Shown: piece after piece, positions 1-15,718 of the stretch
Numbering within the stretch: position 1 is the first letter of the stretch
Layout: each line of letters begins with the position of its first letter
Virus record (IMG/VR): IMGVR_UViG_2778261179_000013
Coordinates: 1-16,612 of that record
Length of the DNA: 16,612 bases
Origin: a virus
Lineage: Duplodnaviria > Heunggongvirae > Uroviricota > Caudoviricetes
Direction: 5' to 3' (one strand)
Notes under the pieces: generated by a model
Database searches by the model: none
The model's input: only the letters and a program-made list of their open reading frames with translations
What the model was told of the DNA's origin: nothing
Translations under genes and position numbers: made by a program

Positions 1-891
1 TTACTTTGCAATGAGATCGGGGTCAACTTCGCTAACCCGGCATCGTTTTGACCGGTTGCCCGTCTTTCTTTTTTTCACTTTCGCCAGTTCTTCCGCGGAG
101 TAATGCGACGCGACATCCAGCCGTCGAAGCCCCATTTTGATGTACTCGCTGTTGATCTCAATACCAATGAATTTTCGTCCGCTGGCGATGGCTACGGCAC
201 CGGTAGTAAAGCTACCGGCAAACGGGTCGAGAACGATATCGCCTGGGTTGGAAGAGGCGAGAATAATGCGTTTCAGTAAGGCTTCCGGTTTTTGCGTCGG
301 GTGGTTCTCATATTCATCCATTAAATAACGCACGCGCGGAAAATCCCAGACGTTACCCGGTACTTTTTGATGATTGTATGGCTGTGGAGGATTTTTGCGA
401 TAATCGATCAACGCGCGCTGCGATCCGGTTTTGGCTTCTACCAGAATAGCATCACCGTTGAATGTGTAGTTCTTTGCGTCTTTCACCATCATCAGGATGG
501 GTTCGTACATGGAGCCGTAGTGTTTTTTCGCCTGTACTCCAGAACTGTCATATGACCAGACGATGCGACTTTTGATGGTAAAAAGCTTGCGGCACTGGAG
601 ATCGATAAAGGGCATGTTTTCCGTACTGTTCATAATGTACATGCTGCCCTGCTTTTTCAGAACGCGGTGGCACTCTGCAATCACTTCAAACAGCCAGTCG
701 ATAAACAGATCTTCTTTCCAGGCTTCGATCAGACCATCAAAATTTTTACCGATGTTATACGGTGGGTCGGCAAAGATCAGATCGACGCTTTCAGTAGGTA
801 GCTTTTTAAGTTCGGCAAGGGCATCACCGTGAATAATGGTCTTAGCTTCATTACCAAACCGGGTCGGTTCACATCCTGTTCTCATGGTCAC
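1..891 (-). CDS. yhdJ: DNA adenine N6-methyltransferase, CcrM-like beta-class (YhdJ-like), complete
   Basis: 296-aa ORF with stop codon at 1-3. Motif IV DPPY (FADPPYNIG) lies N-terminal to the AdoMet-binding motif I FAGSFTTG, which is the beta-class permutation; HPTQKP motif also present. From memory the protein is near-identical to E. coli YhdJ, whose gene lies just downstream of fis; the true start may be the second Met (883-885). Confidence 0.8.
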   Translation of the reverse strand: MTMRTGCEPTRFGNEAKTIIHGDALAELKKLPTESVDLIFADPPYNIGKNFDGLIEAWKEDLFIDWLFEVIAECHRVLKKQGSMYIMNSTENMPFIDLQCRKLFTIKSRIVWSYDSSGVQAKKHYGSMYEPILMMVKDAKNYTFNGDAILVEAKTGSQRALIDYRKNPPQPYNHQKVPGNVWDFPRVRYLMDEYENHPTQKPEALLKRIILASSNPGDIVLDPFAGSFTTGAVAIASGRKFIGIEINSEYIKMGLRRLDVASHYSAEELAKVKKRKTGNRSKRCRVSEVDPDLIAK

Positions 892-910
892 TCCCTTTGT
901 GACACCTATA

Positions 911-946
911 AAAAAGGCGCTTCCCCATGCCGAGTAGCGCCTTTTT
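911..946. terminator. Hairpin flanked by A5 and T5 runs (bidirectional intrinsic-terminator-like); probably the fis terminator
   Basis: aaaaaggcgct (911-921) is the reverse complement of agcgccttttt (936-946), with a 14-nt loop. It sits between the MTase start and the fis-like remnant. Confidence 0.5.
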
Positions 947-970
947 AATCAAGCATTTAGCTAACCTGAA

Positions 971-988
971 TTAGTTCATGCCGTACTG
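971..988 (-). other. fis 3'-end remnant (encodes YGMN-stop) and putative att core / island junction
   Basis: The minus strand reads cag tac ggc atg aac taa = Q-Y-G-M-N-stop (stop at 971-973). Fis ends ...KKYGMN. The frame is broken one codon further upstream (tga at 989-991) and there is no fis-sized ORF in 892-1155, so only the last codons are present. Confidence 0.45.
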
Positions 989-1115
989 TCATATTAGCTG
1001 TTTTCATGCTTTTAGATGATTTTAATATTCATATAATAATCAATGTGTTGTATAAATTCATGCCTGTATATTGTTCCAGTGTTTTTCTTTGTTTATGCTA
1101 TTATGTAAGCAATTC

Positions 1116-1137
1116 TGTATAAACATTTGTATAAACA
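1116..1137 (+). promoter_or_regulatory. Direct repeat TGTATAAACA x2 about 20 bp upstream of int; candidate promoter or recombinase/IHF-type site
   Basis: tgtataaaca at 1116-1125 and 1128-1137, within an AT-rich leader; a related tgtataaa lies near 1049. Confidence 0.3.
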
Positions 1138-1155
1138 CTTTGGGCTGGGTGGTCT

Positions 1156-2379
1156 ATGGCTGGCGAACTTAACAAACTGAGCGACAGGAAGTTAAAGGGA
1201 TTACATGGTATCCCGGCCAGTAAGATTGAGTTCTATGCTGATGGTGCCGGGCTGAGCGCCAAGGTAACTAAAGTTGGTGGTATTAGCTGGGTGTTTACTT
1301 ACCGACTCGACGGGCAGAAGCTGCATCGTCTTACTCTGGGACGATACCCGGATATGAGCCTCAAAGAGGCCCGTTCTTCGCGTGATAAATGCCGCCAATG
1401 GCTGGCCTCAGGTAAAGATCCAAAGCACCAGTTGGCGCTGACCACTCAGGAAACGCTTAAACCGGTCACTGTTAAGGAAGCTATCGAATACTGGATACGC
1501 GAATATGCAGAAGAGAACCGCGCGAATGTTGAAAGGCACAAAGCGGAGCTGCGTAAACACATTTATCCTTATATTGGGAAAATGGCGCTCGCTGACTGCG
1601 AAACCCGTTATTGGCTTGACTGCTTTGACAGGATGAAAAAGAAAACGCCAGTTGCTGCGGGTTATGTGTTCCAGATGTGCAAGCAAGCCCTGAAATTCTG
1701 CCGGGTTCGTCGCTATGCTGTGAGTACCGCGCTGGAAGATTTAACAATTCCAGATGTCGGTAAAAAACAGGCAAAAAAAGACCGGGTATTAAACGATAAA
1801 GAGGCTGGCGATTTATGGGCTGCCATTACCTCTGGAACTTGCTTCATGCCTTACTACACCAGGCTACTGACAATCTTAATGGTGTTTGGGTGCCGAACGC
1901 AGGAGGCCAGACTGTCAGAATGGAGTGAATGGGATATGGATGCCTGGGTCTGGACAGTTCCCAAAGAGCACAGCAAGGGCGGCGAGAAGATTGTAAGACC
2001 TGTGCCGGATGCCATGCGCAAATTCATTGAAATACTGCATGATGAAACGAAATTATCCGGCCTTTTGCTTGGGTCGGTTAAAGGCAGTGAAGCGGTAAGT
2101 CAGTGGGGCCGCGGTGTTTATAAAAAGCTGGGGCATTCTGAACCATGGACACTGCACGATCTAAGACGAACTTTAGCAACGCATATGAATAATATGGGTA
2201 TAGCACCACACGTTGTCGAACAGTTGTTGGGGCACTCAATGCCGGGAGTTATGGCGATTTATAACCGTAGTCTGTACTTGCCTGAGAAACTGGATGCGTT
2301 GAATAAATGGTATGACCGTCTCGATATTTTGGCGGGTAATCACTCGAATATTGTTATTTTAAAGGCTGGTGAGAAATGA
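1156..2379 (+). CDS. int: Tyrosine recombinase, P4-type phage integrase
   Basis: 407 aa. N-terminal arm-binding-type region (GLSAKVTKVGGISWVFTYRLDGQKLHRLTLGRYP), catalytic region with HDLRRTLATHM (HxxR) and the LGHSMPGVMAIYNRSLY tyrosine motif. Confidence 0.95.
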   Translation: MAGELNKLSDRKLKGLHGIPASKIEFYADGAGLSAKVTKVGGISWVFTYRLDGQKLHRLTLGRYPDMSLKEARSSRDKCRQWLASGKDPKHQLALTTQETLKPVTVKEAIEYWIREYAEENRANVERHKAELRKHIYPYIGKMALADCETRYWLDCFDRMKKKTPVAAGYVFQMCKQALKFCRVRRYAVSTALEDLTIPDVGKKQAKKDRVLNDKEAGDLWAAITSGTCFMPYYTRLLTILMVFGCRTQEARLSEWSEWDMDAWVWTVPKEHSKGGEKIVRPVPDAMRKFIEILHDETKLSGLLLGSVKGSEAVSQWGRGVYKKLGHSEPWTLHDLRRTLATHMNNMGIAPHVVEQLLGHSMPGVMAIYNRSLYLPEKLDALNKWYDRLDILAGNHSNIVILKAGEK

Positions 2380-2678
2380 AAAAGATAAATAAAATGACCG
2401 AATTACCGAAATGGTTTTCATTGGACAATTACAATTCTATCAATGGGCTGAGTGATCTTGATTTAATTAATCAGTTAGCTATGAGAATGGAAGTTGCTAA
2501 TGATGATTTTGAATGGCTTGATACCTATCCCGGAGCAAGAAATGAGTTCGCTTCATTTATGGAAGAAAGATTTAGTAACCCAATTCGGCCACTGAGCGGA
2601 AAATTATTTGCAGAAAAAATAAAAAGAAAAAATATTCTGAATGGCAAATGGATTCCGTCGGAGGTGTTGAGCCTTTAA
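2376..2678 (+). CDS. Hypothetical protein (AT-rich cargo ORF)
   Basis: 100-aa ORF whose ATG overlaps the int stop (ATGA at 2376-2379). Markedly AT-rich compared with the flanking genes. No motif recognised. Confidence 0.4.
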   Translation: MKKINKMTELPKWFSLDNYNSINGLSDLDLINQLAMRMEVANDDFEWLDTYPGARNEFASFMEERFSNPIRPLSGKLFAEKIKRKNILNGKWIPSEVLSL

Positions 2679-3163
2679 GATTAATTGATGTGATGCAGTT
2701 GTCTAAGAAAGCCGCTCATTATATTGATGAAAATAAAATTAATCGCTCATTGCGTGGACAAAAAAGGTCTGTAAGTAAGACCATAAGCGATAATGATCAA
2801 ATGCATATTACTTTAGATTTGTCTTGGCCTGATGAAATTTTATTAAGCGATTTGGCTGCATTGTTGCCAATATGGCGAATGGATCTTGAAAGGAAAAGTG
2901 AAAATAGTTGTAAGTTAAGTAATAGCTGGAGTGTAATCAAAAAGAAAATATTCGATTGCAAGATATTGCCAATGTTAGACCTTATGGAGTGGGCTAAAAT
3001 TAACAATGCAACAATCACTAACAGAGTTTTATCTTTAGCCCTGTTTCCTAATGCAGAGTATGACGCCATTGGTATCGCTCAAACGATCAAACCGTTCATT
3101 AGAAATTTTTCCGCAGATTTTTCTATAGAAATATTAAAGCGCAAAGCTATGGATTCATTTTAA
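2648..3163 (+). CDS. Hypothetical protein (AT-rich cargo ORF); start uncertain (alternative ATG at 2693)
   Basis: 171-aa ORF in a different frame, overlapping the previous ORF by 31 nt just after an A-rich run (2606-2632). Either a separate gene or the distal half of a frameshifted gene. No motif recognised. Confidence 0.45.
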   Translation: MDSVGGVEPLRLIDVMQLSKKAAHYIDENKINRSLRGQKRSVSKTISDNDQMHITLDLSWPDEILLSDLAALLPIWRMDLERKSENSCKLSNSWSVIKKKIFDCKILPMLDLMEWAKINNATITNRVLSLALFPNAEYDAIGIAQTIKPFIRNFSADFSIEILKRKAMDSF

Positions 3164-3266
3164 TCGGGAAATCCATATAGAAATAATTAAAAAATATCTA
3201 ATAGTGAACCATGCTTTTTAATAGCAAATAATAGCCTCCACAAAACGTAGAAACAGTGGAGGCAAC

Positions 3267-3551
3267 ATGCAAAATATCACCTTTATCCCGCCAAATCCTG
3301 AGCAGCGCCGCACCCTTTTAGAGGAGTACGGCTTTAAGTTCGACCGTCGAATCCGTGAAGAAGAATGTAGCGAGATCACCAGCCTTTCCCGTTCCAGCCG
3401 CTGGAAGATGGAACAGCAGGGGCGCTTCCCTCCGCGCTGTCACTTTGGCCGCAATAGCTGTGCCTGGCTTCTTTCGGATGTGCTCTGGTGGGTTCGTAAT
3501 CCGCCAGCAGTAGAGAACGTCAATAACCCGTACAGCCGCAAATCTGCTTAA
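3267..3551 (+). CDS. alpA: AlpA-family phage transcriptional regulator (helix-turn-helix)
   Basis: 94 aa. EITSLSRSSRWKMEQQGRFPPRCHFGRNSCAWLLSDVLWW matches the AlpA pattern (tGlSRst.Y ... G.FP ... G.rsv.W ... eV..Wl). GGAGG lies upstream of the ATG. Confidence 0.7.
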   Translation: MQNITFIPPNPEQRRTLLEEYGFKFDRRIREEECSEITSLSRSSRWKMEQQGRFPPRCHFGRNSCAWLLSDVLWWVRNPPAVENVNNPYSRKSA

Positions 3552-3571
3552 TTAACTACAGGTAATCGAAT

Positions 3572-4378
3572 ATGGAAAAAATAACTGCCTTGGCTGGCAG
3601 CGGCCAAACTCACCCCGAAACCAGCCAGAAAGATATTTCCAGCGATAATTTTGCTGCCCGGATCCCTGTAACCATGAGCACTATTGGTGGGAAAGAAACT
3701 CAGTCTGTAAGTGGTCGTAAGCTGCATACGTTTCTAGCTGTAGGGCGAGACTTTACCACCTGGATGAAAGCACGCATCAAACAGTATGGGTTTGTTAAAG
3801 GGGTTGATTATGTAATTGTTGAAGATTTGAGCACCCCAAAACGGGGGAGCGCAAAATCTCGCCAACAAGTCGAGCACGATTACATTGTCAGCCTGAATAT
3901 GGCTAAAGAGCTTTCTATGGTTGAGCGCAACGCGCAAGGCAAGATGGCCCGCCAGTATTTCATCGACTGTGAAGAACGTCTGCGCCGCGTAGCACCAGAG
4001 GAACATGAGGCGGCGTTGTTGGGCTGGCGTAAAAATCGTGTAGCTGCCTGCGAAGATCATAAGAGTATGGCCGATGCAATGAAGGGCTATATCGAGCGCA
4101 CCGGCGACAGGCAGCACGGCTTTGCCTACAGCAATGAATGCTCGTTCCTGAATAGCCTTGTGCTGGGTATGCACCCGCGAGTGTGGGCGAAACAGAAAGA
4201 AATTCCAGTTAAGCTGGTGCGTGACCATATGAACGCCGATCAGCTGGCGCTGCTGGCTTATCTGGAAAGCCGTGATTGTGCTCTGCTGGATCTTGATACC
4301 CGTACGGCAACCCGTAAGGCGAAACTCACCGAACTGGCACAACGCTGGCTGGTTAAGCGTGTTGGAGGTGCTGAGTGA
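3572..4378 (+). CDS. Phage antirepressor-like protein (AntA-type N-terminal domain)
   Basis: 268 aa. SGRKLHTFLAVGRDFTTWMKARIKQYGFVKGVDYVIV resembles the AntA/AntB antirepressor N-terminal motif (sARdLH.fL ... F..W ... ygF.eg.Dy). The C-terminal half is unassigned. Confidence 0.55.
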   Translation: MEKITALAGSGQTHPETSQKDISSDNFAARIPVTMSTIGGKETQSVSGRKLHTFLAVGRDFTTWMKARIKQYGFVKGVDYVIVEDLSTPKRGSAKSRQQVEHDYIVSLNMAKELSMVERNAQGKMARQYFIDCEERLRRVAPEEHEAALLGWRKNRVAACEDHKSMADAMKGYIERTGDRQHGFAYSNECSFLNSLVLGMHPRVWAKQKEIPVKLVRDHMNADQLALLAYLESRDCALLDLDTRTATRKAKLTELAQRWLVKRVGGAE

Positions 4379-4708
4379 TTTTGCATAACTCAATCAGGGT
4401 TGCGCAGAATTTGAGCCGACGAAATTCGCACGCGCAAATCAAGCTCGGTGATATGCCGAGTTTGAACAACCGCGTACTTTTAACGTACGGACATAGCAAC
4501 CCATTGAATCATCTTAATTATCGCGAAATGCGAGAATTGGCGAGCAACGAACACGAACAGTATTCGGGTTCGCCTGAACATCAACACTGCTTAGGTTCAG
4601 AGGTTCCGACGAATAACGTAGAGAGCTGCAATGGCAGCGCATTTTTGCTCTACGAGGGAAATCAACAACGTACAGTTTTGTACCGTAATCCAGATTTGGC
4701 TTACGAGA

Positions 4709-4768
4709 GGGTAGTACCTCAAAGTCACGAGGTTAACAGGGTAGTAACTCATAGTTACCAGGTTAACC
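4709..4768. repeat. Tandem direct repeat, 2 x 30 bp (25/30 identical), each unit containing GTTAAC
   Basis: gggtagtacctcaaagtcacgaggttaaca (4709-4738) and gggtagtaactcatagttaccaggttaacc (4739-4768). The units carry different internal stems (ACCTC/GAGGT in unit 1, GTAACT/AGTTAC in unit 2). Confidence 0.8.
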
Positions 4769-4877
4769 GCGTCGCTAAAAGATACGCGGAAAGCAAGACC
4801 TCTTTAAGAGGGGCAGTTCAGTGCGTGGAGACCTACGAAATTTTCGTAGGTCACAGCATTACCGAGAGTAACCCTGT

Positions 4878-5063
4878 TCAGCTTTCAGATTCCGATCTGG
4901 CTTTCTTGCGTTGGCGGCGTTTGATCTCGCATTGCATGGCTGTAACGATAAATTGGGCAGTGCTTTCGCCTTGCTCTTTAACTTGTTCCATTGCCTCGAC
5001 AACTTCATGCGGGGCACGAGTTTGCAATTTTTGTGATTTTTCGTTCTTTGTTCCCGTCGCCAT
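4878..5063 (-). CDS. Ribbon-helix-helix (Arc/CopG/MetJ-like) transcriptional regulator, probable island repressor
   Basis: 61 aa from the ATG at 5061-5063 (minus), preceded by AGGAGA with a 7-nt spacer. QKLQTRAP-HEVVEAMEQVKEQ-GES-TAQFIVTAMQCEI fits the RHH beta-strand / helix A / G-x-S turn / helix B pattern. The supplied ORF track starts it at a TTG at 5084. Confidence 0.65.
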   Translation of the reverse strand: MATGTKNEKSQKLQTRAPHEVVEAMEQVKEQGESTAQFIVTAMQCEIKRRQRKKARSESES

Positions 5064-5081
5064 TACTAAGTCTCCTGATAT

Positions 5082-5190
5082 CAAGTGGAGTACAGAATAC
5101 CAGAAAAATAATGAAATAAAACACTTGAAGTGGATTCCACTTTGTATTTATAGTGGAGTCCACCTTGAAGGGGTTCACCTTCAAGATATA
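5082..5190. promoter_or_regulatory. Divergent promoter/operator region with interleaved inverted repeats (half-sites AAGTGGA / TCCACTT and CACTT / AAGTG)
   Basis: cacttgaagtg (5122-5132) and aagtgga-t-tccactt (5128-5142) are overlapping palindromes; agtggagtccac (5152-5163) and ccttgaagg plus caccttcaag (5161-5185) follow. The region lies between the RHH gene and the rightward operon. Confidence 0.55.
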
Positions 5191-5261
5191 GCGAAGCCCG
5201 GCAGTGCGCGAACACTAACCGGGCCTCTGACCACCAAGATAGTTAACGTATCGAGGCAGCT

Positions 5262-5450
5262 ATGAAAGATTATATCACACACCCGCAAGGGCGGAAGTCC
5301 TACACCTGGCGTTTTCTGGCGCTGAGCGCCATCGGTCGCAACGTCATTCACATCAAAGCTACCACCGAACGCGAAGCCCGTGAGCAATCACCGGCTGGCT
5401 GCGTGATGGTATTCGCTGGCCGTCTGCCTGTGGAGGTGCGCCATGCGTGA
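5262..5450 (+). CDS. Hypothetical small protein (first gene of the rightward replication operon)
   Basis: 62-aa ORF with GAGG 5 nt upstream of the ATG; overlaps the next ORF. Confidence 0.5.
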   Translation: MKDYITHPQGRKSYTWRFLALSAIGRNVIHIKATTEREAREQSPAGCVMVFAGRLPVEVRHA

Positions 5451-5637
5451 GCCAATCAGCTTAGACCAGGCAGAATACAAATCAGCGCTGGCTGCTTCAC
5501 TTTTCGAAACCATTCTGGAAAAAGCCTGTGCTGAGTGTTCGGAAACCCTGCTGAACCATATCTCACTGGCATGTGACCTTAATCAGGAAATTCACCGGGC
5601 ATTAATCGCCGAGCTGGGTATGGGAGATGCGAAATGA
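5443..5637 (+). CDS. Hypothetical small protein
   Basis: 64-aa ORF with GGAGG 6 nt upstream of the ATG; its stop overlaps the next start (ATGA at 5634-5637). Confidence 0.5.
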   Translation: MREPISLDQAEYKSALAASLFETILEKACAECSETLLNHISLACDLNQEIHRALIAELGMGDAK

Positions 5638-5852
5638 GACAGGTTCCTTTTGAAGTCCTGATGCACGCTGAAAATGCCCTTTCTGAAAGCGAAGGAGCCT
5701 ATGAGGTTCTCAGCATGTGGCTAGACAGTATTCCTGAAGGCGAGGAGTTCCACGGTGAAGCGTGCAAGGTAAGCGCAATCATGTCGCTGCTGCATAAATC
5801 TATCGGCGAGCTGGTGAAAGCGCGGGAGGCTTACAGTGAAAAACGCGCCTAA
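5634..5852 (+). CDS. Hypothetical small acidic protein
   Basis: 72-aa ORF with GGAGA upstream; overlaps the start of the replication gene. Confidence 0.5.
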   Translation: MRQVPFEVLMHAENALSESEGAYEVLSMWLDSIPEGEEFHGEACKVSAIMSLLHKSIGELVKAREAYSEKRA

Positions 5853-7605
5853 CGTGAAAACCCTCCCACGCGACAAAATGGAGGAGGCCATCATCTTTGC
5901 CGGAACAGGAGCATGGAAAGCAGCTCAGGATTACCAGAAAGGTAAAGATGAGCATGGCGATGAGGTGCCGCCGGTTGTTCTGGATCATACCCAGCTGGCG
6001 GAATTACCCCACCTGCGCATTGTTGATAAAGGACGCCGATTTGCCCGTGTCTGTCAGGCCGGACTTATCGAACAAAACCAAATCAGTATGATTGCCAATA
6101 AGTTGTGTGAGGCTGGCGTTACCAATGCTGAGTTTATCAACGAAAAAGGTGAGAAAGAGGACTGGACGCCATTAATGAAGCGTCTGGAAGACGAGCCCCT
6201 AATGGTGACTACGAGGGGTAGCGCTACGCCAGCGCTTAACCAGATGGGAGCCAGCCAGCGCGGGGAAGTTCTGCTTGCTCATTACGATGGCAATCTGGCG
6301 ATCCATGCTGATTCCGACACGGTTCATCATTACAACGGCGTGGTGTGGGTTCCGCTTTCGGATAAAGAGCTGCAGCGAGAAATGGCGCAAATTTTTATTG
6401 ATGCCGAAGTCGCCTATTCGCAGAACGCGATTAAATCCGCTGTCGATACAATGAAGCTGGGTCTGCCAGTGATGGGTAACACAGCCCGAAATCTTATTGG
6501 TTTCAGCAACGGGGTTTTTGATACCCGGTTAGGGCAATTTCGACCACATGATAAAAAGGACTGGCTTATCGTTGCGAGCGAATTGCCATTCAGCGAACCA
6601 GCAGAAGGAGAGACTCTGGCAACCCATGCGCCGAACTTCTGGAAATGGCTCCGCCGCTCTGTGGCGGATAATGACAGAAAATCAGACCGCGTACTGTCTG
6701 CTCTGTTCATGGTGCTGGCGAACCGGTACGACTGGCAGCTGTTTCTTGAGGTAACGGGGCCGGGCGGAAGTGGTAAAAGTGTTATGGCTGAGATCTGCAC
6801 GATGCTGGCCGGCAAAGCCAATACGGTATCGGCAAGCATGGCGGCGCTGGAGAACCCAAGGGAAAGGGCGCTGGTGGTTGGCTATTCGCTGATTATCATG
6901 CCGGATATGACCCGGTACGCTGGCGACGGCGCAGGGATTAAAGCTATCACTGGCGGGGATAAGGTAGCTATCGACCCTAAACACAAAGCGCCGTATTCAA
7001 CGCGTATTCCGGCAGTGGTGCTGGCCGTCAATAACAATGCCATGTCATTCAGCGACCGAAGCGGTGGTATTTCGCGTCGTCGGGTTATTTTTAACTTCTC
7101 AGAGGTGGTACCGGAAAACGAACGTGATCCTATGCTTGCCGAGAAGATTGAAGGTGAGCTGGCCGTTATCATTCGCCACCTGCTTACTCGCTTTTCCAGA
7201 CAGGACGAGGCCAAACAGCTTTTGCATGAGCAGCAGAAATCAGAAGAGGCGCTGGCCATCAAACGTGAAGGGGATTCACTGGTGGACTTTTGCGGCTACC
7301 TGATGGCTTCGGTCGTATGTGATGGCATGTTTATCGGGAACGCCGAGATCGTACCGTTCAGCCCGCGCCGTTATCTGTATCACGCTTATCTGGCTTATAT
7401 GCGGGCTAACGGCCTGAGCAAGCCGGTGTCGCTGATGAGGTTCGGCACGGATATGCCAGGCGCAATGGCTGAATATGGCAAGGAGTACCAGAAGCGCAAA
7501 ACAAAACATGGCATAAGATCAAACGTCACACTTCACGACGATTCAGAAGACTGGATGCCTATGTGGAATGATACTTCTCACAATACCGGAGAAAATCAAA
7601 AGTAA
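5836..7605 (+). CDS. Replication initiator / SF3 helicase of the P4 alpha (D5-like) family (PICI pri-rep-like)
   Basis: 589 aa. Walker A VTGPGGSGKS, a Walker B-like LIIMPDMT region, and a D5_N-like segment (IGFSNGVFDTRLGQFRPHDKKDW). GTG start at 5836 is preceded by GGGAGG with a 7-nt spacer. No EGYATA-type primase motif seen in the N-terminal ~300 aa. Confidence 0.85.
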   Translation: MKNAPNVKTLPRDKMEEAIIFAGTGAWKAAQDYQKGKDEHGDEVPPVVLDHTQLAELPHLRIVDKGRRFARVCQAGLIEQNQISMIANKLCEAGVTNAEFINEKGEKEDWTPLMKRLEDEPLMVTTRGSATPALNQMGASQRGEVLLAHYDGNLAIHADSDTVHHYNGVVWVPLSDKELQREMAQIFIDAEVAYSQNAIKSAVDTMKLGLPVMGNTARNLIGFSNGVFDTRLGQFRPHDKKDWLIVASELPFSEPAEGETLATHAPNFWKWLRRSVADNDRKSDRVLSALFMVLANRYDWQLFLEVTGPGGSGKSVMAEICTMLAGKANTVSASMAALENPRERALVVGYSLIIMPDMTRYAGDGAGIKAITGGDKVAIDPKHKAPYSTRIPAVVLAVNNNAMSFSDRSGGISRRRVIFNFSEVVPENERDPMLAEKIEGELAVIIRHLLTRFSRQDEAKQLLHEQQKSEEALAIKREGDSLVDFCGYLMASVVCDGMFIGNAEIVPFSPRRYLYHAYLAYMRANGLSKPVSLMRFGTDMPGAMAEYGKEYQKRKTKHGIRSNVTLHDDSEDWMPMWNDTSHNTGENQK

Positions 7606-7860
7606 TGGGAAAAGTGTTCACCACTATTCACTGTGGATAAAATCGTTTATATAACAGATATTTAAGGGGTGAACACTTTTTATTGAAGTGTTCACCAAGT
7701 ATTCACCTGTTCACCTTTAAAGGGCTTTTCTTTTAAAAGGTGAAGGGTTAGGGTGAACACTAGTGAATACTTAAAATTATAGTCTTCACCCTGTAACCAT
7801 ATGAATTTGAATGGAAAAAATGCAAAGGTGAACAGGTGAACACTTAAACGCATATTTTTT
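7606..7860. repeat. Iteron array and AT-rich tract; putative origin of replication (P4 ori/crr-like)
   Basis: At least 10 copies of GGTGAACA(CTT) or its reverse complement (AAG)TGTTCACC, e.g. 7612-7622, 7668-7678, 7686-7696, 7709-7716, 7751-7760, 7826-7833, 7834-7844, plus variants (tattcacc, gtgaatac, cttcacc), followed by T-rich runs at 7852-7866. Placement immediately 3' of the replication gene is typical for these satellites. Confidence 0.75.
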
Positions 7861-7878
7861 ATTTTTACGAGGCTGCAT

Positions 7879-8223
7879 ATGGAAATTTTAGGCAACCATA
7901 ACGACAAGTTTCACGGCATCAAATTTCTGCATAGTGCAATTGAAGAAATGAATGAGAAAGCTGAAGTAACTCTGACCGACTATCTGGCTCTTAGGGCTTT
8001 TGTTCTGGCTGAGCGAAGAGAAACTCAGGACTACATTGATGCAATGGATGAAACGTATGCTGATTTGCCCGATGATCTGCGTTCTTACATTGAGCTTCTT
8101 AATGACGTTGCCGCACAGCTATCAAATCCATCACGCTCAAATGGGAATTTAAAATCAATTATTTACGATGCGAGAATATCAAGCGGAAACGCCATGTCTC
8201 ACTGGTTCAGTGTTGATAGATAG
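7879..8223 (+). CDS. Hypothetical protein (AT-rich cargo, gene 1 of a two-gene cassette)
   Basis: 114-aa ORF with ACGAGG 6 nt upstream of the ATG. Acidic and predicted helical; no motif recognised. Compositionally distinct from the flanking replication and head genes. Confidence 0.55.
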   Translation: MEILGNHNDKFHGIKFLHSAIEEMNEKAEVTLTDYLALRAFVLAERRETQDYIDAMDETYADLPDDLRSYIELLNDVAAQLSNPSRSNGNLKSIIYDARISSGNAMSHWFSVDR

Positions 8224-8246
8224 TAAAATCTAAGAAGGGATAACTA

Positions 8247-9092
8247 ATGCGTACTAATGATGATTTACAGATAATCCGAAAGCATCTGGATGGTGAATTT
8301 GAACAGCGCCTGTTAGACGCTGCGATCAATAACCTTTTGGATGAAAATAATCAGCTTCGGTTCAGCAATTATGCCTATGCACTTAGAGAGCTATTCTTAC
8401 ACGTTCTAAAACGCATGGCACCTGATGAAAATGTTCAACTATGCGAGTGGTTTCCTGGTTTGAATGAAAGAGAGCAGGTTGCAAGAAAAGACTCTTACAA
8501 ATATATCATTCATGGTGGGTTAAGTGATGAATATGTCAGGGATGTACTTGATGTAAATATTGCCGGAGTAATTCCGGGATTGCGTGATGCGTTCTACTCA
8601 TTAAATAAATTTACTCACATAAGCGAAAAGATTTTTCCAATTAATGATGACGATGGCCTAAAAATGGTGGGAGAGGTTGAAGGTTGCATCGGAGCTCTTT
8701 TCACCAAGCTTGATGAGTGTCATAAGGAGATAATTAATAAGCTTTATGAAGCTGTGAGTGAGGCCGCGATACATAGTTCGATAACTGAAACTGTAACATC
8801 AATTGATATTTTATCGACACACAGCTCGGTTGATGAAGTGTATGTTGATGATGTGAAAATAGTAGAAATAAATGACTCTGAAGTAATTTTCTCTGTTAGT
8901 GGCTCTGTAGGTGTCGGGTTGCAATGGGGATCTAATTCCGATTTGCGAAATGACATAGGTGCTGTAGGTAGAGAAACATTCCCATTTACCTGCGAGGTGA
9001 GAAGTCCAGTGTATGCCCCTGAACGTTTAGAGTGTGATGAAGGGGCATTCCATGCAGATACTTCAAGTTGGTGGGAAGGATATTACGACTAA
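8247..9092 (+). CDS. Hypothetical protein (AT-rich cargo, gene 2 of a two-gene cassette)
   Basis: 281-aa ORF with AAGAAGGGA upstream of the ATG. Helical N-terminal region containing an R-x4-H motif (RELFLH) and a beta-rich C-terminal region. Followed by an intrinsic terminator. Confidence 0.6.
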   Translation: MRTNDDLQIIRKHLDGEFEQRLLDAAINNLLDENNQLRFSNYAYALRELFLHVLKRMAPDENVQLCEWFPGLNEREQVARKDSYKYIIHGGLSDEYVRDVLDVNIAGVIPGLRDAFYSLNKFTHISEKIFPINDDDGLKMVGEVEGCIGALFTKLDECHKEIINKLYEAVSEAAIHSSITETVTSIDILSTHSSVDEVYVDDVKIVEINDSEVIFSVSGSVGVGLQWGSNSDLRNDIGAVGRETFPFTCEVRSPVYAPERLECDEGAFHADTSSWWEGYYD

Positions 9093-9128
9093 CAAGTGTA
9101 AATTATTCGTCCTCGCGTTTATTAGTGC

Positions 9129-9160
9129 TTAGCCCGATAAAATTCGGGCTTTTATTTATT
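9129..9160 (+). terminator. Rho-independent terminator after the cargo cassette
   Basis: Stem agcccg (9131-9136) / cgggct (9145-9150) with an 8-nt loop, followed by tttatttatt (9151-9160). Confidence 0.6.
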
Positions 9161-9324
9161 ATTTTCATGTATATGTTGAGAAGTGGCACTCAGACGTGAG
9201 CCGCCACTGGCCGTTAAATCAAGCTGTAGCGAGTACAGCCTGTGGGATGCAGAAAAAGATTTAACGGCCTCCCCTCCAAGCGCTGGTTTCACGTCTCTAC
9301 GTTAATTGATACGGAAACCACTCC

Positions 9325-10491
9325 ATGAAGAAACTACTCGAATTACGCCAGCAGAAAGCCACACTCAAAACCCAGATGCGTTCCATGCTGGACAAAGCCG
9401 ACACCGAAAAGCGCAGCCTGAACGAAGAAGAGGGCAAAAAGTTCGATGAACTCCGCGCCCAGGCTGATGCGCTTGAAGTTGAAATTACCCGCCTCGAAGC
9501 CGTCGCCGACGATCAGCGCAATCTGCCTGGTACTTCCGTTGAAGGTGAGCTAGTAAGCAACGACGAGCTGCGTCACTACATTATGACCGGTGATACCCGT
9601 TCTCTCTCCACGCTGGTGCAGGCTGACGGCGGTTATACCGTTATTCCTGAACTGGACAAAGAGATCATGCGTCAGTTGCAGGATGATAGCGTGATGCGCT
9701 CCATCGCAACGGTAAAGACCACCAAAACCAACGAATACCAGAAACTGGTATCTGTGGGCGGCACTACCGTTAAGCGCGGTACCGAAGGCGAAGCGCGTAC
9801 CGAAACCAGCACGCCGAAGATGGAGCGTGTTGATATCAAACTCAACCCGATCTACGCCTATCCGAAAACCACTCAGGAAATTCTCGACTTCTCTGAGGTG
9901 GATATTCTGGGCTGGCTGTCTTCTGAAATTGCCGACACCTTCACCGCTACCGAAGAGAGCGACTTTGTGAACGGCGACGGTGATAAAAAATCCAAAGGGT
10001 TCCTGTCTTACCCTCGCGCGGCCACAGCCGATAAAACCCGCCCGTTCGGTACGCTGGAGAAGATGGAAGCTGCTGACGTTTCCTCTGATGGCCTGATCGA
10101 CCTGCTGTATAAGCTGAAAGCCAAATACCGCAAAAACGCCGTATGGGTGATGAACTCCAATACCGCGGCCAAACTGCAAAAGCTGAAAAACGGCAACGGG
10201 GATTACATCTGGCGAGATCGTCTGGTTGCCGGTTCTCCCGATACGCTGCTGGGCCGTCCGGTTCAATATCTCGAAACCATGCCAGATGCGGAAGCAGGTG
10301 AAGCGTTCCTTGCTGTGGGCGACTTCAAACGCGGCTATTTCATCGTGGATCACACCACTGGTGTGCGTACCCGTCCTGACAACATCACCGAACCGGGTTT
10401 CTACAAGGTACATACCGATAAATACCTGGGCGGCGGCGTGGTGGACTCCAACGCCATCAAGGTGCTTGAGCTTTCCGGCTCCGGTTCCTGA
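9325..10491 (+). CDS. Major capsid protein, HK97 family (with N-terminal delta/scaffold-like coiled coil)
   Basis: 388 aa. N-terminal coiled-coil region (LELRQQKATLKTQMRSMLDKADTEKRSLNEEEGKKFDELRAQADALEVEITRLEA) and HK97-MCP-like core blocks (GGYTVIPE ... AVWVMNSNTAAKLQKLKNGNGDYIW ... LLGRPV ... GDFKRGYFIVDH). Confidence 0.9.
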   Translation: MKKLLELRQQKATLKTQMRSMLDKADTEKRSLNEEEGKKFDELRAQADALEVEITRLEAVADDQRNLPGTSVEGELVSNDELRHYIMTGDTRSLSTLVQADGGYTVIPELDKEIMRQLQDDSVMRSIATVKTTKTNEYQKLVSVGGTTVKRGTEGEARTETSTPKMERVDIKLNPIYAYPKTTQEILDFSEVDILGWLSSEIADTFTATEESDFVNGDGDKKSKGFLSYPRAATADKTRPFGTLEKMEAADVSSDGLIDLLYKLKAKYRKNAVWVMNSNTAAKLQKLKNGNGDYIWRDRLVAGSPDTLLGRPVQYLETMPDAEAGEAFLAVGDFKRGYFIVDHTTGVRTRPDNITEPGFYKVHTDKYLGGGVVDSNAIKVLELSGSGS

Positions 10492-10539
10492 TTTGACGTT
10501 TGAGGGGCTTAGGCCCCTTTTCTCCTGTGGAGTCCAACA

Positions 10540-11100
10540 ATGAAAACAATTGATTTTGAAATCCGCACCTCCGATCTGAGCGCCAGTAACAAAAAGCTGG
10601 TGGGCTATGCCGTGCGCTGGAACAGTCTCTCTGAAATTATCTGGGACGAGTTCCGCGAGCAGTTTGCGCCGGGAGCGTTTAAAGACAGCCTGGCATCAGG
10701 TAGCGATGTGCGTGCGCTGTACGAGCATAACTATACCCAGCTGCTGGGCCGCACTAAATCCGGAACGCTGGTGCTGTCCGAAGACGATACCGGGCTGCGC
10801 TTCGAGCTGACCCCGCCGAATACCCAGCTTGGTAACGATGTGCTGGAGCTGGTGGAGCGTGGTGATATCTCCGGCATGAGCTTTGGTTTCCGGGCGCTGA
10901 AAGAGGCGTGGGATATCGGCCAGTCTCCATACCTGCGCACTGTTACCGCAGCCGAACTGCGGGAGATTACCGTTACCTCTATGCCTGCTTATCCTGAGTC
11001 TGGCGTGGAAATCGCGCACCGTTCGCTTTTCTCCCAACATCCTGAACTGCGCCGCGCTGGCGATAACCGTCGCCGCTGGGCTGAATTAGCGGGGCTCTGA
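10540..11100 (+). CDS. Prohead maturation protease, HK97 family (S78-like)
   Basis: 186 aa. LVGYAVRWNS ... FAPGAFKDSL ... LYEHNY ... GMSFGF fits the HK97 prohead protease pattern, including the candidate His and Ser residues. Confidence 0.85.
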   Translation: MKTIDFEIRTSDLSASNKKLVGYAVRWNSLSEIIWDEFREQFAPGAFKDSLASGSDVRALYEHNYTQLLGRTKSGTLVLSEDDTGLRFELTPPNTQLGNDVLELVERGDISGMSFGFRALKEAWDIGQSPYLRTVTAAELREITVTSMPAYPESGVEIAHRSLFSQHPELRRAGDNRRRWAELAGL

Positions 11101-11101
11101 T

Positions 11102-12337
11102 ATGTGGAATATCTGGCCGTTTGGCCGCAAGTCTGAACCCTCTGAGCAGCGCAGCATGACCATTGATGAATTTCTGGCGATGGCAGGGATTCCAAATACC
11201 GGATCAGGCGAGTATGTGTCTGCGGGTACTGCGGAATCTCTGCCGGCGGTCATGAACGCCGTATCAGTTATCAGTGAGGCGGTGGCAACAATGCCATGCT
11301 ATCTCTACCGCGTCCGTAATGATAATGGTCGTGAGGCGCGAGAATGGCTGAGTAATCACCCGGTGGATTTTCTCCTGAACGAGCAGCCGAACGACTGCCA
11401 GACGCCTTATCAGTTTAAACGCACGATGATGCGCCATTGTCTGCTGAACGGTAACGCCTATGCGGTGATCCAGTGGGGCCGCGACGGCCAGCCGCAATCC
11501 CTGCACCCGTATGCGCCGGGGGCGGTTGTTCCTGAGCGTATCGGCCAGCATAAGTACAAATACACCGTTACAGAGCCGTTTACCGGGGCTGTGCGCACCT
11601 ATCTACAGGAAGAGATTCTGCACCTGCGTTACTCCACCGATGATGGCTTTCTGGGGCGTTCGCCTATTACTACGTGCCGTGAGGCGCTGGGGTTAGGTCT
11701 GGCCCAACAGCGCCACGGTGCCAGCATTATGAAAGATGGCATGATGGCGGCGGGCGTCGTCACTACTGCTGAATGGCTCGACAGCGTGAAGGGTAAGCAG
11801 GCTCTGGACGCACTGGAGCGCTACAAAGGTGCCAGAAATGCCGGGAAAACGCCGATCCTTGAAGGTGGCATGGATTATAAGCAGCTGGGCATGAGCAATC
11901 AGGATGCCGAATGGCTGGCCTCTCGTCGCTTCACCATTGAAGACATTGCCCGCATGTTCAACGTGTCGCCTATCTTCCTGCAGGAATACAGCAACAGCAC
12001 CTACAGCAATTTCAGCGAAGCGAGCCGCGCCTTTCTTACCATGACGATGCGCCCGTGGCTGGCGAACTTCGAACAACAAATCAAATCTGCGCTGCTGGTG
12101 GCCTCCCCAGTCCCAGGAACCCGTTATCAGGTGGAGTTTGACTCTGCTGACCTTCTCCGCGCCACGCCAACCGAACGTTATGCCACTTATGAGCGCGGTA
12201 TTAAGAACGGGATCATGAACCCGAACGAAGCCCGAGAGCGTGAGGGGATGCCACCGCGTGAAGGTGGTGACGAATTCAGCCAGGCATGGAAGCAGGAAGT
12301 GAAGATCAGCAAAGACGGCAAGGAAGGTGACGCATGA
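11102..12337 (+). CDS. Portal protein, HK97 family
   Basis: 411 aa. Conserved blocks LLNGNAYAVI, GFLGRSPI, FTIEDIARMFNVSPIFLQE and NPNEAREREGMPP match the HK97-type portal pattern. Its start is 2 nt after the protease stop. Confidence 0.9.
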   Translation: MWNIWPFGRKSEPSEQRSMTIDEFLAMAGIPNTGSGEYVSAGTAESLPAVMNAVSVISEAVATMPCYLYRVRNDNGREAREWLSNHPVDFLLNEQPNDCQTPYQFKRTMMRHCLLNGNAYAVIQWGRDGQPQSLHPYAPGAVVPERIGQHKYKYTVTEPFTGAVRTYLQEEILHLRYSTDDGFLGRSPITTCREALGLGLAQQRHGASIMKDGMMAAGVVTTAEWLDSVKGKQALDALERYKGARNAGKTPILEGGMDYKQLGMSNQDAEWLASRRFTIEDIARMFNVSPIFLQEYSNSTYSNFSEASRAFLTMTMRPWLANFEQQIKSALLVASPVPGTRYQVEFDSADLLRATPTERYATYERGIKNGIMNPNEAREREGMPPREGGDEFSQAWKQEVKISKDGKEGDA

Positions 12338-12672
12338 GAGCCGGGGGGCTGAGAAGCCGCGTCACTATTCGGGTATTCACTACCCACAGGGAGCCGTCCG
12401 GTCAGGTTGTTCAGGTCTGGGAAGACGGGGAAACCATATGGGCTGAGGTTAAGGGGATCAGTGGCCGAGAGTTAATGGCGTCAGGTGCCGAGGTTGCCGA
12501 AGCGACGATCCGCGTTTGGGTGCGTTTCCGCCGTGATATTACCGCAGCCAACCGTCTGAAAGTGCTTACTGGCCCGTTTGCTGGCAGCACTCTCAATATT
12601 ATCGGGCCTCCTATTCCTGATTCGGAAGGTACCCGGCTGGAAATTCTCTGCAAGACAGGAACGGAAAAATGA
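12334..12672 (+). CDS. Head-tail adaptor / head closure protein (SPP1 gp16-like)
   Basis: 112 aa; RVTIRVFTTHREPSGQVVQVWEDGETIWAEVKGISGRE fits the head-tail joining family pattern. ATGA overlap with the portal gene. Confidence 0.7.
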   Translation: MRAGGLRSRVTIRVFTTHREPSGQVVQVWEDGETIWAEVKGISGRELMASGAEVAEATIRVWVRFRRDITAANRLKVLTGPFAGSTLNIIGPPIPDSEGTRLEILCKTGTEK

Positions 12673-12962
12673 CAGCAGAAATCACCCTGGATGAAGCAAA
12701 GCTGCATTGCCGTATTGATGATGATTACGAAGATACGTTGATACAGGCGTACATCGATGCGGCGCTGGAGGTTTGCCAGAAGCATATCGGCAAGCGGTTT
12801 GATAACGGGCTGGAGTTTACGCCAGCTATCAAGATTGGCTGTCTGATGTACGTATCTCAGCTGTACGAGTACCGCACGATGATTGGTGATACCGACGCCA
12901 AAGAGATACCGATGGCTGTCTCTGCGTTGTGGTCTGTCTATCGTGATGTGGGGGTGTACTGA
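12669..12962 (+). CDS. Head-tail connector protein (gp6-like)
   Basis: 97 aa; ITLDEAKLHCRIDDDYEDTLIQAYIDAALEVCQKHIGKR ... YEYR fits the gp6-like connector pattern. ATGA overlap with the upstream gene. Confidence 0.7.
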   Translation: MTAEITLDEAKLHCRIDDDYEDTLIQAYIDAALEVCQKHIGKRFDNGLEFTPAIKIGCLMYVSQLYEYRTMIGDTDAKEIPMAVSALWSVYRDVGVY

Positions 12963-13405
12963 TGCCGTGGCAACCACTACGCCGGTGCAATGAGCCTGGA
13001 TGTAATAAACGGGTGAAGTCTGGCAAGTGTGACGAGCATAAGCGGGATGCCCGCCGACAAAGCGACAGCCGAAGAGGTACGCGAACAGAGCGTGGTTACT
13101 CCAACCGCTGGGGCGAATACCGTCGTCATTTTCTAAAAGCTAATCCGCTGTGTGTCCATTGTCTCAAGGCTGGCGTCTATGCATCGGCAACTATCGTCGA
13201 TCACATCATCCCTATCGAGGGTGAAGCTGATGTGCTGTTCTGGCCCGCCAGTAATCACCAGTCGTTATGCGCTGCCTGTCATGGACGGAAGACAACCACA
13301 ACAGACCCGGTGACGAAGCAGCAGCGTAAAGCCGGTAAGTTCCGCGAGCAGGAAGAAGCAGCACGTCATCGCACCGACTGGATCTATGAGGCAAACAATG
13401 ACTGA
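12962..13405 (+). CDS. HNH endonuclease (packaging-associated)
   Basis: 147 aa. Cys-rich N-terminus (CNEPGCNKRVKSGKCDEH) and an HNH core (CVHC ... DHIIPIEGEADVLFWPASNHQSLCAACHGRKT). Position next to the terminase genes is typical of HNH-cos packaging systems. Confidence 0.85.
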   Translation: MPWQPLRRCNEPGCNKRVKSGKCDEHKRDARRQSDSRRGTRTERGYSNRWGEYRRHFLKANPLCVHCLKAGVYASATIVDHIIPIEGEADVLFWPASNHQSLCAACHGRKTTTTDPVTKQQRKAGKFREQEEAARHRTDWIYEANND

Positions 13406-13550
13406 GCAGGAACAGCAGCGGCTGATTAGTGGGCTGATAAAGCAGCGTGAGTCATGGCAACCAGCCAGACAGAGAGCGCATAAGAAGCCCGTAGCAAAGC
13501 GCATGAGCCAGCGTGACCGGGAGCTTATGGAATGCTTTCGCAACCGCTGA
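13398..13550 (+). CDS. Possible small basic protein (50 aa), unannotated in the ORF track
   Basis: The ATG at 13398 overlaps the HNH gene end and the frame is open to the TGA at 13548-13550, giving MTEQEQQRLISGLIKQRESWQPARQRAHKKPVAKRMSQRDRELMECFRNR. Below the track's length cut-off; low support. Confidence 0.3.
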   Translation: MTEQEQQRLISGLIKQRESWQPARQRAHKKPVAKRMSQRDRELMECFRNR

Positions 13551-13680
13551 CAGGCCGAATGGACGGGGTGGGGGAGGTTTTAAAGACAAACCCCTCTCAG
13601 CGAGGAACCACCCGCCCCCTCAAATTTTTACGCACGGTGATTTTTTTGAAAATAAAACGCGACGGAAACGAGAAATTTTT

Positions 13681-14037
13681 ATGGCAAGACCACCCAAACC
13701 GCCAGCTTACCTTGATGAGTTAGCTGCGCAGCAGTGGAAAGCGAAGGCGAAGCAACTGGCGGAGCGCGGGGATTTGACTCCCGCCGACTGGAACAACCTT
13801 GAGCTTTTTTGCGTCAACTATTCGATGTACCGCAAAGCCGTGGAAGACCTTGCCAGCCGTGGGTTCAGCATTGTTAACAGCCAGGGCGGTGAGAGCCGAA
13901 ATCCGGCGCTGAGCGCAAAGGCCGATGCTGAAAAAATCATGATTAAAATGTCGTCGCTGCTGGGCTTTGATCCGGTAAGCCGCCGCCGGAACCCGGTGGA
14001 AACGGAGGAGGAAGACGAGCTTGACCGTCTGGAATGA
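13681..14037 (+). CDS. terS: Terminase small subunit (P27-family-like)
   Basis: 118 aa from the ATG at 13681: MARPPKPPAYLDELAAQQWKAKAKQLAERGDLTPADWNNLELFCVNYSMYRKA ... The track ORF from 13513 adds an implausible Gly-rich N-terminal extension, so the internal ATG is preferred. Confidence 0.8.
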   Translation: MARPPKPPAYLDELAAQQWKAKAKQLAERGDLTPADWNNLELFCVNYSMYRKAVEDLASRGFSIVNSQGGESRNPALSAKADAEKIMIKMSSLLGFDPVSRRRNPVETEEEDELDRLE

Positions 14038-15682: not shown

Positions 15683-15718
15683 TAGTGCTTGAACTTTTCA
15701 AATTGTCACTGTAATTCT

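Follow-up and report, generated by a model that had tools for sequence, protein, structure and literature searches.

Small coupled genes ahead of the replication gene of a capsid-forming phage-inducible chromosomal island: a probable counterpart of the P4 left operon

What are the three small open reading frames (ORFs) that lead into the replication gene of the viral record IMGVR_UViG_2778261179_000013, and what might they do for the element that carries them? The stretch of DNA analysed here (positions 1 to 16,612 of that record, 16,612 nucleotides in all, referred to as the window) is assigned to the Caudoviricetes and contains, between positions 5262 and 5852, frames of 62, 64 and 72 amino acids that are called ORF1, ORF2 and ORF3. 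They are probably, although by no means certainly, the genes next to the promoter in the early (replication) operon of a capsid-forming phage-inducible chromosomal island (PICI) at fis, an operon built like the left operon of P4.

ORF1, ORF2 and ORF3 are real protein-coding genes under purifying selection, far beyond what chance would give. The initial annotation had described three frames of these lengths with Shine-Dalgarno sites and stop-to-start overlaps, and their exact positions were reproduced. Shine-Dalgarno sequences lie 5 nt upstream of ORF1 (GAGG, before ATG 5262), 5 nt upstream of ORF2 (GGAGGT), 7 nt upstream of ORF3 (GGAG) and 6 nt upstream of GTG 5836 (GGAGG), the start of the primase-helicase gene that follows. 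ORF1 and ORF2 overlap by 8 nt (ATGCGTGA), ORF2 and ORF3 by 4 nt (ATGA), and ORF3 and the primase-helicase gene by 17 nt. On the E. coli chromosome NZ_CP067265, which is 99.9% identical, the Prokaryotic Genome Annotation Pipeline (PGAP) has the same three coding sequences at the same coordinates, named Icd-like protein and two hypothetical proteins.

For comparison, 26 loci of different species were picked by similarity of the primase and 48 viral contigs by similarity to ORF2, and ratios of nonsynonymous to synonymous substitution (dN/dS) were calculated by pooling Nei-Gojobori counts from ungapped matches between about 40-57 related loci. Conservation across related islands, which the initial annotation had named as a check, was clearly found. 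The three frames had no stop codon in any compared locus and ratios of 0.16-0.18 with mismatches concentrated at the third codon position (Table 1), whereas off-frames gave ratios of 1.4-4.2 and hundreds to thousands of stop-containing codons (1.4-2.9 and 1,650-4,640 for ORF1 to ORF3). The 8-nt overlap between the Icd-like gene and ORF2 was kept in 45 of 47 loci, with GGAGG(T) within the last codons of the Icd-like gene, and the overlap between ORF2 and ORF3 (ATGA or GTGA, with GGGAG) in 38 of 38. Low dN/dS, third-position bias, absence of in-frame stops, conserved junctions, Shine-Dalgarno sites and identical PGAP calls thus identify ORF1 to ORF3 as genuine genes. Judged by their conserved stop/start overlaps, they are translationally coupled to each other and to the primase-helicase gene. 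The coupled chain starts upstream of 5262, where a frame of 296 codons, the eta-like frame (4375-5265), links the stop of an antA-type gene to the start of ORF1.

None of the three frames had been thought recognisable by motif, which does not hold for ORF1. It scores 62.5 bits (cutoff 25) on the profile NF033153, 'host cell division inhibitor Icd-like', where its residues 14-57 align to model positions 1-48, and in RefSeq it carries the name Icd-like already. The same model finds P1 Icd (52.6 bits, residues 12-51) and the kil-containing ORF of P4 (73.9 bits, residues 85-132), the latter under its historical annotation 'cI gene product (AA 1-137)'. By BLASTP, ORF1 is 32% identical to P1 Icd (E 5e-7). 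P1 Icd binds FtsZ and blocks Z-ring formation, and its residues 12-51 suffice, as the minimal region, for FtsZ binding and the division block (PMC11897509). By its profile match, ORF1 is a member of the Icd-like family, which includes P1 Icd and the P4 ORF encoding Kil. PHROGs labels the families of ORF1 'transcriptional repressor', a label probably inherited from the obsolete P4 cI annotation. A tblastn search of phage records with ORF1 had one packaged capsid-forming PICI as its sole find.

The comparison with the P4 left operon, already drawn in the initial annotation, was apt, as ORF1 falls into the family of the P4 kil ORF and shares the overlap cassette of kil and epsilon. In the P4 sequence, an ATG with the Shine-Dalgarno sequence AGGAGG opens a 65-codon ORF that ends in ...ARLPVVEVSRA, where ORF1 ends in ...GRLPVEVRHA, and that shares 8 nt with epsilon, forming the cassette GAGGTGTCCCGTGCGTAA, the geometry of which equals that of ORF1 and ORF2 (GAGGTGCGCCATGCGTGA). 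We take this 65-amino-acid product to be Kil. Kil is a truncated form of Eta and functions in cell killing (PMC10111431). As expected of a kil-type gene, ORF1 is short, has its own Shine-Dalgarno site and start, and comes first after the promoter-like site at 5125-5154. ORF1 would be the kil/icd counterpart of the island and is a probable cell-division inhibitor. It might act as a small FtsZ-directed inhibitor of cell division or growth that is made when the operon is switched on, which would give this gene a proposed function in cell-division arrest during satellite induction. As an independent experimental hint, a prophage-borne locus of E. coli ECOR61 has been reported to contain a long Icd-like gene, a primase gene and four further linked genes; it inhibits growth when triggered by a phage protein, but no longer once the Icd-like gene is removed (Silas et al., bioRxiv 10.1101/2023.04.06.535777). 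As that locus is described, the island resembles it in its Icd-like gene, needed there for growth inhibition.

The eta-like frame begins in a GTGA overlap on the antA stop, and its terminal TGA (5263-5265) overlaps the ATG of ORF1 (ATGA). It contains no stop, as against about 20 in each other plus frame of the same 890-nt span. In relatives, the Icd-like frame is mostly the end of an open frame of 210-490 codons whose start overlaps the stop of the gene before it. An equivalent long frame (152-493 codons) is kept at 59 of 70 loci with an Icd-like domain. At 53 of the 70, an in-frame open run of at least 180 codons is fused to the domain, and at six, including the window, a run of 152-314 codons lies in another frame and ends at the Icd start, unfused. 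Homologous high-scoring segment pairs of this region are in the same frame over all 136,899 nt, though the region is a mosaic at the nucleotide level, and related loci have one stop-containing codon in frame versus 3,275-4,304 in the off-frames. The frame nevertheless has a dN/dS of 0.57, a nearly flat codon-position profile and an odd composition, and searches of the extension in Pfam and PHROG gave no match. Phase-specific avoidance of stops without amino-acid constraint therefore suggests that translation itself is selected, and the frame, almost unconstrained in sequence, appears to be translated. For annotation this matters, as the long 'Icd-like proteins with N-terminal extension' reported by gene finders would mostly be an unconstrained translated leader and not domains.

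If the eta-like frame is kept for being translated, the small ORFs might likewise be mere translational relays or chance frames with irrelevant peptides. The neighbouring frame does behave in this way, but the substitution pattern of ORF1 to ORF3 already contradicts it, with a ratio and third-position bias like those of YlcI (0.15), and so do their conserved residues and confident helical models; this explanation is very improbable. A second doubt concerns ORF1 only, which might be the stranded C-terminal remnant of a frameshifted eta-type gene in an island that is defective here. The window differs in length from the fused relatives by 1 nt at a point about 25 nt ahead of the ATG, so that kil is shifted out of frame, and the DUF6387 gene of the island is frameshift-split as well. 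Nonetheless, the ATG and Shine-Dalgarno site of ORF1 are conserved inside the fused frame in every relative examined, kil of P4 is translated on its own from an equivalent internal start, the upstream frame ends exactly on the ATG with the coupling kept, and five further loci share the unfused layout. A remnant is, with these findings, quite improbable.

Within the eta-like frame, the window has specific insertions at about 4690-4840 relative to five aligned relatives, and the frame stays open across them; one insertion holds two direct repeats of roughly 28 nt (GGGTAGTAcCTCAaAGTcACgAGGTTAAC, about 4709-4766). That the frame is the shadow of a minus-strand gene was rejected, as no minus frame is open outside ylcI. 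A 'KTKAA' motif at the start of many long frames, first taken as an N-terminal peptide, turned out to be the antisense image of a leftward intrinsic terminator, with compensatory changes in the stem. At several loci (L002 7417-7450, L017 3115-3150 and others), a hairpin with such compensatory changes is followed by TTTGTTTT on the minus strand. Located at the end of the antA/alpA gene, the hairpin and TTTGTTTT look like the intrinsic terminator of the leftward transcript from the ylcI side.

On the opposite strand, inside the eta-like frame, lies ylcI, a small gene whose position is taken in relatives by a gene of the HicB/Arc/ribbon-helix-helix type. YlcI is a candidate for a small repressor of the rightward promoter, and its sequence may be read as a ribbon-helix-helix fold. 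The predicted sigma-70 promoter of the operon from ORF1 to the primase gene is internal to the eta-like frame, like PLE in P4, and is supported by two operator-like palindromes, AGTGGAnTCCAC, because they overlap its hexamers. Allowing up to two mismatches, this sequence occurs 16 times in the window (2.9 expected), with perfect matches only at these two sites, and a degenerate third copy lies at 5084-5095. In a relative whose YlcI is 67% identical, GTGCGATTCAC repeats are found at the operator position instead. YlcI and the palindromes would form a candidate repressor/operator pair in a satellite class for which the cited PICI papers name no repressor. Two further palindromes, GGTGGACTCCAA (10440-10452) and TGTGGAGTCCAA (10526-10538), are located after the capsid gene and before the protease gene, each differing from AGTGGAnTCCAC at two positions; they could be due to chance or be a second control point of the same regulator.

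Between promoter and ORF1, a structured leader was found. The RNA of 5160-5275 folds with -37.4 kcal/mol (z = -3.64), and across 18 loci 86.5% of cells are paired versus 25-48% in slid controls, with eight pairs changed on both sides. The leader could act on mRNA stability, processing or the control of kil translation. Rfam searches gave no C4, isrK, c4-a1b1 or other credible family in 4380-5300 (E up to 10) or in the whole window (E up to 1). With P4 as a control, the C4-family CI RNA and isrK/a1b1-type targets were detected within eta at 74.9, 60.8 and 44.1 bits, the last being the c4-a1b1 match, which is just under the gathering score of 46.7 bits.

The left operon of P4 consists of the nested genes eta and kil, followed by epsilon, orf151, cnr and alpha; eta contains a constitutive internal promoter and kil, and because eta is translated, transcripts that come from the upstream promoter escape termination and read through (PMC10111431, citing Forti et al. 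1999). In the P4 sequence, ATG 8767 overlaps the stop of orf88, the alpA homologue, and opens a 199-codon frame containing kil. The island shares with P4 a Kil-type gene of the same family (NF033153) and of similar length (about 62-65 aa) and Shine-Dalgarno context, a long frame whose start overlaps the stop of the regulatory gene before it and which has a promoter inside, an 8-nt cassette of Shine-Dalgarno site, start and stop to the next gene, and small coupled genes that end in a primase/helicase of the P4 family. Unlike P4, the window has no C4/CI or isrK/seqA RNA and carries antisense ylcI with palindromic operators where P4 has these RNAs. Its long frame and kil are unfused, neither ORF2 nor ORF3 is related to epsilon, orf151 or cnr, and the island has its own capsid and terminase genes, while psu, sid and delta are not annotated.

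Along these lines, ribosomes on the eta-like frame of alpA/antA read-through transcripts would keep Rho from terminating, as in the precedent of P4 eta. After this frame, termination and reinitiation would pass translation to ORF1, ORF2, ORF3 and the primase-helicase, and the unfused frame of the window would preserve this by its ATGA coupling. Transcripts from the predicted internal promoter would be controlled by the antisense-encoded YlcI at the two palindromes, replacing the CI RNA of P4.

A number of points weigh against this interpretation. The eta-like frame of the window is not fused to ORF1, as it is in P4 and in 53 of 70 relatives, so genes nested in the strict sense are absent here. 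A Rho-dependent terminator cannot be located from sequence, and the proposed role of the frame against Rho draws on its stop avoidance with near-neutral evolution and on the P4 precedent. Taken alone, the promoter match is no better than chance (one found in the region, 1.5 expected). YlcI has no ribbon-helix-helix match of its own and no match in Pfam or PDB, and its DNA binding is presumed. ORF1 is just 32% identical to P1 Icd and to P4 Kil, and FtsZ targeting would be an extrapolation. The pooled dN/dS pairs are non-independent, even though the resulting pattern was regarded as unambiguous. For ORF2 and ORF3, Foldseek searches (PDB for both models, BFVD also for that of ORF3) returned only generic helical hairpins, with a lowest E-value of 0.31. 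That a given primase type occurs with divergent or no ORF3 argues against a tight partnership and says nothing about the function of the pair. More generally, statements on function in this island are predictions from sequence and analogy.

A wider proposal joins two parts, (a) a sequence-independent 'translated bridge' over a protein immunity module throughout PICIs and (b) a heterodimeric four-helix module of ORF2 and ORF3; in this combination it is tentative and rather doubtful. If (a) were true, a long ORF of arbitrary sequence would be kept purely for ribosome cover across hundreds of enterobacterial PICIs, and the bridge would span the whole antisense repressor gene together with promoter, operators and terminator, generalising P4 eta and replacing the CI RNA. 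If (b) were true, the module, held at a fixed ratio by the ATGA coupling, would gate Kil toxicity or the interaction between satellite and helper.

Profile and structure searches, also named as a check in the initial annotation, identified the family of ORF1 and gave only generic helical-hairpin matches for ORF2 and ORF3. Both are predicted to form two-helix hairpins (AlphaFold pLDDT, the predicted local distance difference test, 78.5 for ORF2 with helices 7-28 and 34-57, and 91.7 for ORF3 with helices 6-32 and 37-71). Foldseek matches of ORF2 to CsoR/CstR-type proteins had E-values of 3.6-7 and are not evidence. The families are small (59 clusters for ORF2 and 81 for ORF3, all named members from enterobacterial genera), and the ORF3 profile found just 52 representatives among 1.84 billion proteins. 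Pfam had nothing for ORF2, for ORF3 or for any of 34 ORF3 family members. By hhalign, no similarity was seen between ORF2 and P4 epsilon (probability 0.2%; hidden Markov model E > 0.5), between ORF3 and P4 Cnr (DUF5375; probability 0.15%), between ORF2 and ORF3, or between ORF3 and the 64-aa ORF that follows ORF2 in L069-type loci; ORF2 agrees with epsilon in position and junction geometry only. An excisionase, one of the functions initially suggested for the small ORFs, is unlikely, as the island has its own AlpA-type gene and no ORF resembles an excisionase.

In the 26 primase-anchored genomes, which form an unbiased sample, an Icd-like gene is present in 24, ORF2 in six and an ORF3-like gene in seven; ORF2 and ORF3 are accessory and not core. 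ORF3 follows directly after ORF2 in 40 of 56 ORF2 loci, and two independent fusion proteins of ORF2 and ORF3 were found (P0261/P0307, on five contigs, one of them of 4.35 Mb, and P0290/P0308). A tandem duplication of the ORF2 domain within one protein occurs as well (L072, L073, L075, L077). Because they are adjacent with an ATGA overlap and fused in two lineages, ORF2 and ORF3 probably act together, as an accessory pair that likely forms one complex or helical bundle. As a guess that may well be wrong, this pair could be a protein-binding factor directed against helper phage or host, placed in the variable slot of epsilon. Such a role is preferred over that of a core replication protein, which is less likely, because of their position in that slot, the patchy distribution and the frequent replacement. 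As a linked accessory pair, ORF2 and ORF3 are of interest for helper or host targets.

Alternatively, ORF2, with ORF3, could be a co-translated antidote or modulator of the toxic Kil/Icd-like protein. Of the 56 ORF2 loci, 46 have ORF2 directly after an Icd-like gene, the 8-nt overlap is found at nearly all junctions measured (see above), and small toxic proteins are often paired with a neutraliser. As the Icd-like gene comes without ORF2 in 19 of the 26 primase-anchored genomes, P4 kil and P1 icd have no such partner, and no fusion or co-variation ties ORF1 to ORF2, an antidote appears improbable.

Another possibility is that ORF2, ORF3 or both are replication accessory proteins acting directly on the primase-helicase, modelled on P4 Cnr, whose gene lies immediately before alpha and which modulates it. 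Other islands have two to six different small coupled ORFs between kil and primase, one family being DUF4222, and the last of them always overlaps the primase start, by 4, 11 or 17 nt, as ORF3 does here by 17 nt. Helper factors are also conceivable because the replication protein of the window has no primase domain recognisable in domain searches. On the other hand, there is no similarity to Cnr/DUF5375, and ORF3-like genes are infrequent in the primase-anchored genomes. In addition, primases 97-99% identical to that of the window are accompanied by ORF3 at 99%, 84% or 60% identity, by an extra DUF4222 gene in between, or by no ORF3 at all (L066). Near-identical primases thus pair with divergent ORF3 or none, so ORF3 is not tied to a particular primase, and a Cnr-like role is unlikely. 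The helper- or host-directed pair is kept as the preferred, if conjectural, assignment. Close relatives of the replication protein at loci L013, L043, L057 and L069-L076 have 775-810 aa and a different, longer N-terminus. At loci L007-L030, unrelated slot proteins end in ...EV(R/G/T)H(A/G)*, a shared C-terminus that arises because the cassette of Shine-Dalgarno site, ATG and stop, GAGGTGnnnCATGnnTGA, is reused at successive junctions. This cassette may also be a recombination joint for module shuffling.

The immI operon of P1 (c4 RNA, icd, ant1/ant2) offers a second parallel, as the Icd-like domain is likewise translated first there and is overlapped by the gene that follows. According to the P1 record, icd is 'apparently required for expression of ant'. 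Unlike in P1, ORF1 has no C-terminal tail, a C4 RNA is missing, and small hairpin proteins and a helicase follow where P1 has an antirepressor.

The element itself is a capsid-forming PICI integrated at fis and not a satellite of the P4 type. In NZ_CP067265 it sits between yhdJ and fis, with fis downstream. The identity block of the attachment (att) sites of 'fis PICIs', TACGGCATGAACTAA (PMC10111431), has an exact match at window positions 971-985 on the minus strand, between yhdJ (1-891) and int (1156-2379), and marks one end of the island. Gene order in NZ_CP067265 is int, a DUF6387 gene, an AlpA-type regulator, an AntA-type gene and, on the opposite strand, ylcI, then ORF1, ORF2, ORF3, a D5_N/DUF5906/Pox_D5 primase-helicase and two cargo genes, and finally an HK97-type capsid, protease, portal, two connector genes, HNH, TerS and TerL. 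Together with int, alpA and primase, the island's own capsid, protease, portal, connectors, HNH, TerS and TerL complete the gene set of capsid-forming PICIs (bioRxiv 10.1101/2022.09.08.507074). None of the P4-like satellite genes psu, sid and delta is among the annotated island genes, and the late region comprises a complete module of HK97-type head and terminase genes. The island shares its gene modules with capsid-forming PICIs such as EcCIEDL933 and its exact fis att block with the Enterobacteriaceae 'fis PICIs', and the four-zone PICI layout of PMC10111431 fits it. The small genes that lie between Bro zone and primase were left uncharacterised in PICI studies, which described regulation there as AlpA-dependent.

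Much of this is ordinary, as the genes are already annotated, the family of ORF1 is known and the regulatory design has precedents in P4 and P1. New relative to the cited literature are the assignment of ORF1 as the kil counterpart in a capsid-forming PICI, the finding that the eta-like frame is widespread, nearly neutral and can be uncoupled from kil, its extension over a protein-based module (ylcI or a ribbon-helix-helix-type gene, with operators) where P4 has RNA, and the fusions that tie ORF2 to ORF3. The early operon, which PICI papers call just AlpA-dependent, is placed in the framework of P4 kil/eta and P1 icd.

Table 1. Features around the small coupled genes of the window, with substitution patterns among related loci
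Feature	Position	Strand	Evidence and signals	dN/dS	Mismatches at codon positions 1/2/3
AlpA-type gene (dN/dS control)	3267-3551		PF05930	0.05	2174/1843/17751
antA-type gene	3572-4378	+	PF08346 AntA, 1.5e-23; stop TGA 4376-4378 overlapped by start of eta-like frame		
Eta-like open frame, 296 codons	4375-5265	+	GTG 4375 overlaps antA TGA; Shine-Dalgarno GGAGGT 5 nt upstream	0.57	4145/4738/6024
ylcI, YlcI/YnfO family, 61 aa (dN/dS control)	4878-5063	-	NF041551, 67.3 bits (cutoff 30); PGAP start ATG 5063; antisense inside eta-like frame	0.15	547/291/1430
Predicted sigma-70 promoter of the ORF1-to-primase operon	5125-5154	+	TTGAAG, 18-nt spacer, TATAGT; consensus scan, 9/12 matches		
Two perfect palindromes, operator-like	5129-5141 and 5152-5164		AGTGGAnTCCAC; 23 bp apart; overlap -35 and -10 hexamers		
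Structured leader ahead of ORF1	5193-5252	+	Hairpin 1 5193-5227, hairpin 2 5238-5252, then Shine-Dalgarno GAGG 5253-5256		
ORF1, Icd-like/Kil-like, 62 aa	5262-5450	+	NF033153, 62.5 bits; first gene after predicted internal promoter	0.16 (domain)	944/1602/5119
ORF2, predicted two-helix hairpin, 64 aa	5443-5637	+	phrog_35285, 3.7e-34	0.16	3817/2625/11802
ORF3, predicted two-helix hairpin, 72 aa	5634-5852	+	phrog_2196, 2e-18	0.18	2144/1209/6620
Replication gene, 589 aa	5836-7605	+	D5_N, DUF5906 (SF3 helicase) and C-terminal Pox_D5; GTG inside ORF3; PGAP same call		

Further observations concern other parts of the island and its relatives. The record LR881103.1 (L004; 16.5 kb), deposited as 'Escherichia phage vB_KppS-Ant' and of induced-prophage origin, is a packaged capsid-forming PICI that shares the operon of Icd-like gene, ORF2, ORF3 and primase; the long frame is annotated there as one protein of 324 aa. 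The DUF6387 gene is split in the window, where two ORFs that overlap (2376-2678 and 2648-3163; 788 nt together) take the place of the single coding sequence of 789 nt in NZ_CP067265, the split being a 1-nt frameshift or a sequencing error. The two cargo genes lie at 7879-9092, between the primase-helicase gene and the capsid module. One of them (8247-9092) encodes a protein of 281 aa with both 'pPIWI-associating nuclease' domains (PF18165, 7e-31; PF18166, 1e-36), which make this gene a candidate for a defence or accessory function, in a region where papers on capsid-forming PICIs expect immune systems.

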